Shown here one piece after another: positions 59,719 through 59,989 of a stretch of 64,000 nucleotides of DNA. The stretch spans positions 61-64,060 of IMG/VR virus record IMGVR_UViG_3300031454_000241. One strand, given 5' to 3'. Position 1 is the stretch's first letter. Every line of letters starts with the position of its first letter. A model generated the notes under the pieces. That model had not been told where the DNA came from. It saw only the letters and a program-made list of their open reading frames with translations, and did not search any database. Origin of the DNA: a virus. Its lineage: Duplodnaviria > Caudoviricetes. Position numbers and translations under genes: made by a program.

Positions 59719-59989
59719 TCGAAGTGGACTGAAATGACGAGTTGCGGGCTGGGCAGTCGAGACGGAGCGGTGAGTCGAGACACGGCGCGGGCTGGGGCGT
59801 CGAGACGATTTGGCCAGAAGCGGCGCGGCCTGAACCGGATAGCGATGGGCTGGGGAGTCGGCACGAAACGGGGCGGCGAGGTCTGGGTAGTCGAGACGCT
59901 AAGGGTAGACGCGGTTTGAACCGGGATGTCGAGAAGCTCGGGGGCGGTATGTACCGTCGTCATGGCGTGGATTGATGCGCGGTGTGTCG
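59719..59989 (-). repeat. Phased pentamer array (48 units in 8 blocks, TCG linkers); candidate non-coding guide RNA
   Basis: On +: 48/48 pentamers end in G, 47/48 have C/T/A before it, 40/48 start with a purine; blocks joined by TCG (mostly in GTCGAGAC); fills the intergenic space upstream of the RAMP gene. Confidence 0.85.

Follow-up and report, generated by a model that had tools for sequence, protein, structure and literature searches.

VIPR (Viral Interference Programmable Repeat) systems, as set out in the main text of their discovery preprint of April 2026 (bioRxiv 10.64898/2026.04.26.720920), consist of a lone phage-borne RAMP protein (Vipr), encoded outside any CRISPR-Cas locus and possessing an RRM core, a G-rich loop and a thumb, of a vap gene that adjoins it in a minimal two-gene operon, and of guide RNAs (vrRNAs) built of 9–16 YNNGG repeats and ending in a structured tail. 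In the vrRNA, the variable NN pair with double-stranded DNA, each third target base being skipped, and rival phages and satellites are silenced. The same text recognizes VIPR loci by at least four flanking non-coding tandem pentamers of GGY/NN "or a related consensus" and distinguishes seven types, I to VII, for which 667 loci are catalogued, with NNNGG, YNNNG and NNNNG among their repeats and with staggered and ribozyme-interspersed arrays; it lists six different vap families and presents the structured 3' tail as a type II feature, other types having other architectures. One Vipr protomer is bound per repeat, GGY being held by the G-loop, the thumb and helix 1 (10.64898/2026.04.26.720927), and the main text of a further preprint, based on a genomic language model, reports non-canonical VIPR arrays of the GAC/NN, CAC/NN, WGT/NN and TGH/NN kinds (10.64898/2026.10.21.760802). 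Here we analyse a tract of phased pentamers at positions 59719–59989 of a 64,000-nt stretch of phage DNA (the window, by which we mean the whole of that stretch), which is nearly all of a 64,060-bp virus record (IMG/VR IMGVR_UViG_3300031454_000241). From comparison with homologous loci we consider it likely that this tract is a guide-RNA array of a VIPR-type system.

Organization of the array and its flanking genes

The tract lies between two minus-strand genes, and the features needed for its reading are as follows.

58819..59712, minus strand: Vipr-like gene, predicted Cas7-type RAMP; open reading frame (ORF) of 297 aa, database form 292 aa with its start at 59697
59713..60006, minus strand: spacer of 294 bp from the stop of the partner gene to the first ATG of the RAMP gene, filled by the array
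59719..59989, minus strand: array of eight candidate vrRNA-like guides, runs of CNNNY pentamers each followed by CGA
60007..60669, minus strand: vap-like partner gene, conserved; product of 220 aa, mainly helical, without a known family

Only a few bases separate the array from GGAG, the ribosome-binding site that serves the 297-aa gene, and outside the flanking pair are genes for a replication-initiator-like protein and a primase-helicase. Neither flanking gene belongs to a Pfam or PHROG family, and no DNA similarity to known phages was detected over 5.2 kb. CRISPR repeats, CRISPR-DR RNA families and ribozymes were all absent from the 64-kb phage genome.

An earlier note, made from the bare letters, had parsed the tract as TCG-linked blocks of phased pentamers. 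This parse is identical to 59719–59989 letter for letter and comprises 49 units in eight blocks; all 49 end in G on the plus strand, 48 being 5 nt and one 7 nt long. The uniform 3-nt phase shift that the note described is equally exact, each of the eight blocks being led by TCG on the plus strand, which on the gene strand places CGA at its 3' end, and the same holds for the block lengths of 3–11 units and for the usual junction, GTCGAGA after five of the seven internal junctions. The blocks, numbered from the lowest coordinate, are:

Block 1, 59719–59756: 7 units
Block 2, 59757–59774: 3 units
Block 3, 59775–59799: 4 units, one of them 7 nt
Block 4, 59800–59857, minus strand: longest candidate guide, 11 pentamers plus CGA, with the end CGTCT-CGA
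Block 5, 59858–59890: 6 units
Block 6, 59891–59928: 7 units
Block 7, 59929–59956: 5 units
Block 8, 59957–59989: 6 units

Read on the gene strand, from 59989 down to 59719, the order is thus 6, 5, 7, 6, 11, 4, 3 and 7 units. The period itself departs strongly from chance: we counted 78 lag-5 G–G pairs on the plus strand against 52 ± 4 in 2000 dinucleotide-preserving shuffles (z 6.2–6.8; highest shuffle 67), with lags 10 and 15 also raised and lags 4, 6, 9 and 14 depleted. In a sliding scan of the 64 kb, the six highest lag-5 scores all fall in the array region. We agree with the earlier note that a 5-nt period is incompatible with selection on codons; the overlapping ORF 59694–60107 was rejected as the product of the tract, since it has no Pfam or PHROG match and such a period cannot come from codons.

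The consensus of the 49 phased pentamers is CNNNY on the gene strand and NNNNG on the other. The plus strand of the array carries 120 G and 55 C; the gene strand is therefore C-rich and G-poor. Pooling six arrays on the gene strand, we found C at position 1 in 89% of units and a pyrimidine at position 5 in 77%, while avoidance of C right after the anchor was seen in the window array only. In the pooled arrays, most CGAC spacings equal 3 mod 5. No canonical YNNGG motif is seen: the fourth position of the plus strand is G in 4% of window units, and the plus-strand reading of the unit, G-R-N-N-H, still does not give YNNGG. Of the unit with three constrained and two free positions proposed in the earlier note, the anchor (G on the plus strand, C on the gene strand) is indeed near-invariant, but the other constrained positions proved loose. 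The minus-strand RNA of the array folds no better than shuffles (z 0.10), and an Rfam search of the spacer gave no family at E ≤ 1.

Arrays accompany RAMP homologues in many phage contexts

We collected homologous loci (numbered L001 onwards) from Logan, ENA, JGI contigs, IMG/VR, two Chloroflexota metagenome-assembled genomes (MAGs) and the cultured Microcystis phage Mae-JY09 (L012; protein WWT39994.1). Every locus read closely has a non-coding tract with C at each fifth base adjoining the RAMP gene. The array lies upstream of the gene in the window and in L001, L007, L010, L014, L017, L020, L021 and L033, and downstream in L002, L003, L012, L015, L016, L022, L023, L027, L028, L030 and L032. 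When strict blocks were defined as at least five perfect C-phased pentamers (CNNNN) ending in CGAC, 26 loci yielded 217 on the gene strand versus 11 on the other, and none occurred in 50 kb of Escherichia phage SUSP1. The remaining gene context differs among loci and includes genes for Rad52, terminase, prohead protease, integrase and ParB. Since the RAMP gene and the array are kept while their surroundings vary, the array is linked to the RAMP gene and not to replication.

The boundaries between guides also recur in the relatives, as a conserved last pentamer followed by a 3-nt C-R-A linker:

Window: CGTCT-CGA
L010: CACAT-CGA
L028 (4900–5250): C(T/A)TTG-CAA
L023 (4690–4960): longer separator CATAATTGA

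In the lower-GC relatives L023 and L028 the separator differs and the 5-nt C register is kept, so the boundary is clade-specific. From the relatives we extracted 122 clean guides, which have 6–15 units with a mode of 7, in arrays that reach 0.6–2 kb or more. The proposal of the earlier note that the tract is a multi-guide precursor with recurring boundaries is supported by these boundaries and by the array, RAMP gene and partner gene forming a module in many unrelated phages.

Several relatives have guide sets that far exceed the eight blocks of the window. L016 has arrays on both sides of the genes (approximately 65–490, 2870–3560 and 4760–5950), L019, like L016 from IMG/VR, also has several, and L024 has 46 strict blocks across about 5 kb. 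In L010, a gene caller placed a 330-aa ORF across the whole array (2354–3346), which suggests that C-rich arrays in high-GC phages are likely to be mis-annotated as proteins.

The RAMP and partner proteins

The product of the 297-aa gene is predicted to fold as a Cas7-type RAMP. Its AlphaFold model, built from a 20-sequence alignment, has a pLDDT of 75, residues 63–297 forming the better-modelled core, and its top structural matches are Cas7-family proteins only (best Foldseek E 6e-6). The VIA matches of the model are:

Csm3, 9g9a_D: Z 10.8
Cmr4, 6s6b_I: Z 10.3
Cas7-11, 7wah_A: Z 10.1
Csm3, 6ae2_B: Z 10.0, root-mean-square deviation 3.6 over 152 residues
Type VII Cas7, 8yhd_A: Z 10.0

At the C-terminus the protein carries a G-rich loop, GFGSLRSQGFG (pattern GhGxxxxxGhG), whose G-x-x-RSQGFG part, which includes R281, S282 and Q283, is invariant in the family; it is on this loop that the sequence libraries gave their only matches, to Cas6 and Csm4 and below threshold. 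The three-copy prediction of self-association scored 0.32, the mark being 0.42. The family counts 1211 representatives at 50% identity with E ≤ 1e-3 and 299 with E ≤ 1e-30, and the branch, of at least 1200 protein clusters at that identity, extends over rock, soil and water metagenomes, Chloroflexota MAGs and a cultured cyanophage. Cas5, Cas6, Cas10 or Cas8, Cas11 and Cas1-2 were not found, the other phage genes not having been scanned singly.

The partner gene lies directly upstream in at least seven loci and encodes proteins of 175–220 aa; homologues in the same upstream position were seen in L001, L002, L003, L005, L007 and L010 (BLASTP E 1e-11, 3e-8). Its model (pLDDT 73.5) has a best fold match of Z 5.6 to an HMG box, too weak to name the fold. 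An array, a RAMP gene and a partner gene together make up a three-part module that matches VIPR as described in the main text of the 2026 preprints.

Comparison with characterized VIPR and other RNA-guided or RNA-binding systems

As a positive control we used the type II system of phage SUSP1 (KT454805.2), in which vipr (28474–29061) and vap1 (28031–28471) are both on the minus strand. Its Vipr was identified by the adjacent arrays and by R138, C173, D177, W178 and R179, which match the preprint numbering, and the array scan recovered GGY/NN arrays in the flanking gaps on the vipr gene strand. The locus of the window resembles that of SUSP1 in having a lone phage-borne Cas7-like RAMP with a G-loop and one small accessory gene, in the absence of cas genes and of a CRISPR array, and in its long non-coding flanks with a 5-nt step, located upstream and/or downstream of the genes and mostly on the gene strand. 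It differs in protein length (about 240–297 aa in the C-anchored family versus 195 aa for SUSP1 Vipr) and in that its guides are contiguous, split by a conserved pentamer and a 3-nt CGA, for which some relatives have CAA or a longer separator. Guides have 3–11 units here and 6–15 in relatives, compared with 9–16 in the characterized vrRNAs.

Several observations weigh against the assignment to VIPR. On the gene strand the unit fixes (Y)C, with one near-invariant position, whereas SUSP1 has GGY, and the roughly 40-nt structured tail or pseudoknot at the 3' end of SUSP1 guides has no counterpart here. Several blocks of the window have only 3–7 units and would therefore confer little specificity. 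A hidden Markov model of the family did not detect Vipr in the SUSP1 genome, and the hhalign alignment to SUSP1 Vipr is weak (probability 20%, E 1e-3), covering the last 70 residues including the G-loop. The partner gene shows no sequence relation to SUSP1 vap1. The three sequencing runs that contain this stretch are all DNA contigs of rock metagenomes, one of them possibly its source, and no RNA run is among them. To these must be added the arrays of L025 and L031, inverted relative to the gene and treated below. In favour of the assignment, the same weak alignment sets S/A and L opposite D177 and W178, which read G in SUSP1, and pairs R179, which is part of the pyrimidine pocket, with an invariant R; this fits an altered base specificity, as far as so weak an alignment allows.

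The non-canonical arrays of the language-model preprint (10.64898/2026.10.21.760802) share with ours a 5-nt period beside a Vipr-like fold and fixed letters other than GGY; according to its main text, however, those have fixed trinucleotides and about 10 repeats. The back-to-back, spacer-less guides of the window may correspond to the "staggered" architecture named in the main text of the discovery preprint. The main text of the VIPR preprints contains no description of a single fixed C together with a register shift by CGA. VIPR as a kind is already known; what appears to be undescribed in that text is how large the clade is and an architecture that is C-anchored, tail-less and delimited by CGA.

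With the Cas7, Csm3 and Cmr4 filaments of class 1 CRISPR-Cas the system shares its best structural matches (Z 10–11), the G-rich loop and, presumably, one protomer per fixed guide step, and the roughly 8 nt conserved at its guide boundaries are reminiscent of the crRNA handle, also 8 nt long. Yet the step is 5 nt instead of 6 and is written into the sequence, and a repeat-spacer array is lacking. A base repeated at the step length of a protein is also found in the origin-of-assembly RNA of tobacco mosaic virus, which has G each 3 nt, and in TRAP leaders, which have (G/U)AG each 5–6 nt, set by the protein footprint. These RNAs serve in assembly or attenuation rather than guiding, and their proteins are unrelated.

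Variable positions, array turnover and targets

In the low-GC locus L023, positions 3–4 of the unit are at background composition and positions 5, 1 and partly 2 are enriched in C; in the window array, positions 3–4 are again the least biased. This composition agrees with the free dinucleotides that the earlier note had read from the array, but the changes between L016 and L019 are not confined to them. When the arrays of these two loci were compared, mismatches at positions 1–5 numbered 19, 39, 41, 41 and 39, so that the anchor is spared, as the note would have it, and the other four positions change equally, which it did not foresee; the code therefore looks looser than three fixed and two free positions. 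Identity between L016 and L019 ranges from 64% to 100% along the arrays, versus 83–90% in the vipr gene, a pattern that guide turnover would give. A near-identical strain, X2, has three changes in the array, at gene-strand positions 5, 2 and 3, too few for inference.

Searches for targets gave no hits above chance. The gapped search with the 11-unit guide, proposed in the earlier note and run as NN-x-NN with positions 3–4 and then 2–3, returned no exact matches in viral_contigs and metagenome_contigs, and self-targets in the phage genome were short matches at chance level only. A mismatch-tolerant test of 57 guides of at least 8 units under 18 position and skip hypotheses showed no excess over unit-shuffled guides in 0.5 Mb of fetched loci, a database too small for power.

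Strand of the guide RNA and alternative explanations

On genomic arrangement we judge it probable that the guide is made from the sense, C-anchored minus strand rather than from the antisense strand. In about 19 independent loci the gene is encoded on the strand that carries the C, and the arrays of SUSP1 are likewise co-directional with vipr. Where arrays lie between the partner gene and vipr they abut the ribosome-binding site of the latter, so the vipr mRNA must include the array, barring a promoter within it. In L003, a −40 kcal/mol hairpin followed by UUUUU (3769–3812) stands on the sense strand directly after the array, with no U-run on the opposite strand. In the same locus the stretch from the vipr stop to the array contains a strong hairpin without a U-run (2993–3022), and the two hairpins with the array between them have the appearance of a complete unit of transcription. 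Scans for promoter and terminator consensus sequences, in the window array and several relatives, gave counts as in shuffles.

The alternative that survives best, although we hold it unlikely, keeps the VIPR-type array and takes the guide from the plus strand, antisense to the genes, as a G-anchored G-R-N-N-H unit, i.e., a relaxed GGY/NN equal to NNNNG. It would bring the array closer to the characterized vrRNAs, all of which are G-based, NNNNG being named as an alternative repeat in the main text of the discovery preprint; with a purine following the anchor G in about 77% of units, the plus strand also comes near GG. Moreover, the loci L025/L026 and L031 show the same pentamer and TCG grammar some 200 bp upstream of the gene, but in the opposite orientation, the gene strand here being the one that carries the G:

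L025, 3440–3660: inverted array, G strand on the gene strand
L031, 3430–3700: inverted array, G strand on the gene strand

L025 and L031 are distant relatives, with 26–29% identity to the Vipr-like protein, and their inverted arrays would also fit a C-anchored array transcribed divergently. Besides the prevailing orientation, an antisense promoter would have no space outside coding sequence for arrays between the partner gene and vipr, and the terminator after the L003 array is predicted to function in the sense direction only. The sense strand therefore remains our preferred source of the guide.

A second alternative, to which we give very little credence, is that the tract acts at the DNA level, as a replication origin or as a set of protein-binding sites with GTCGAGAC iterons in the replication module. 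The array indeed lies between the replication-initiator-like gene, with its neighbour, and the primase-helicase gene, and GTCGAGAC occurs four times and is nearly palindromic. However, the array accompanies the RAMP gene into loci without replication genes, where it lies, for example, beside terminase, protease or integrase genes, its block lengths are out of helical phase, and a stronger origin candidate is found 1.2 kb away:

61085..61208, plus strand: CGTCAC cluster, with about eight CTNNT units before it, within the initiator-like gene (60670..61584, minus strand)

Here six copies of CGTCAC, at 61123, 61143, 61153, 61173, 61183 and 61203, lie on one strand with spacings of 20, 10, 20, 10 and 20 bp. 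This iteron-like, helically phased cluster is probably the origin of the phage, in the manner of lambda O.

Least credible of all is that the tract gives an unstructured, C-rich leader RNA which regulates vipr without guiding, a Rho loading (rut) site being one example: the gene strand is C-rich and G-poor (120 C vs 55 G), has YC every 5 nt and shows no structure above shuffles, but a rut site can do without a precise 5-nt register and without CGA punctuation, many loci have the array downstream of the gene, and arrays in relatives are of kilobase scale. Rho loading, primase recognition sites (GTC-rich) and helical phasing of the DNA (10 pentamers + 3 = 53 bp) were all dropped, as each fails to account for the array staying with the RAMP gene in unrelated contexts.

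A possible mode of action and its implications

We propose that the partner gene, the array and the vipr-like gene would be transcribed as one operon from the minus strand, giving an RNA with C at each fifth base on which Vipr-like protomers, one per pentamer, would assemble into a filament. Pockets of the protein would grip the anchor C and usually the preceding pyrimidine, leaving the middle bases free, and the free bases of successive pentamers would jointly read, with gaps, a double-stranded DNA sequence belonging to a rival phage, to a satellite or to a prophage and lead to its silencing. The conserved pentamer and CGA would close each guide, shift the register and mark the start of the next guide or filament. 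In this scheme, filament formation, gapped pairing and silencing are borrowed by analogy from the SUSP1 preprints, and the transcribed strand, recognition of C, processing at CGA, the pairing bases and the targets are what we infer for this clade.

We are slightly inclined to go further and see here a large branch of VIPR that reads cytosine, not GG, and makes tail-less, back-to-back guides with an 8-nt boundary from one operon transcript. If so, VIPR would have changed its RNA–protein recognition code on at least one occasion, and there would be a programmable DNA-binding system that is both orthogonal and more compact. As only G-based, tailed VIPR guides have been characterized, a branch that differs in its anchor and in how its guides are delimited would illustrate the evolution of the protein–RNA code; the C-anchored branch would also test the generality of the pairing rule in which 1 nt is skipped, and could supply guide scaffolds without cross-talk to the known ones. 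The module in the cultured Microcystis phage Mae-JY09 gives direct experimental access to it. For annotation, such arrays would account for long ORF-free, C-rich tracts in high-GC phages, which are often mis-called as ORFs.

Other features of the window

One further feature stands apart from the array and its genes and is the sole Rfam match at the gathering score in the phage:

431..503, minus strand: tRNA gene
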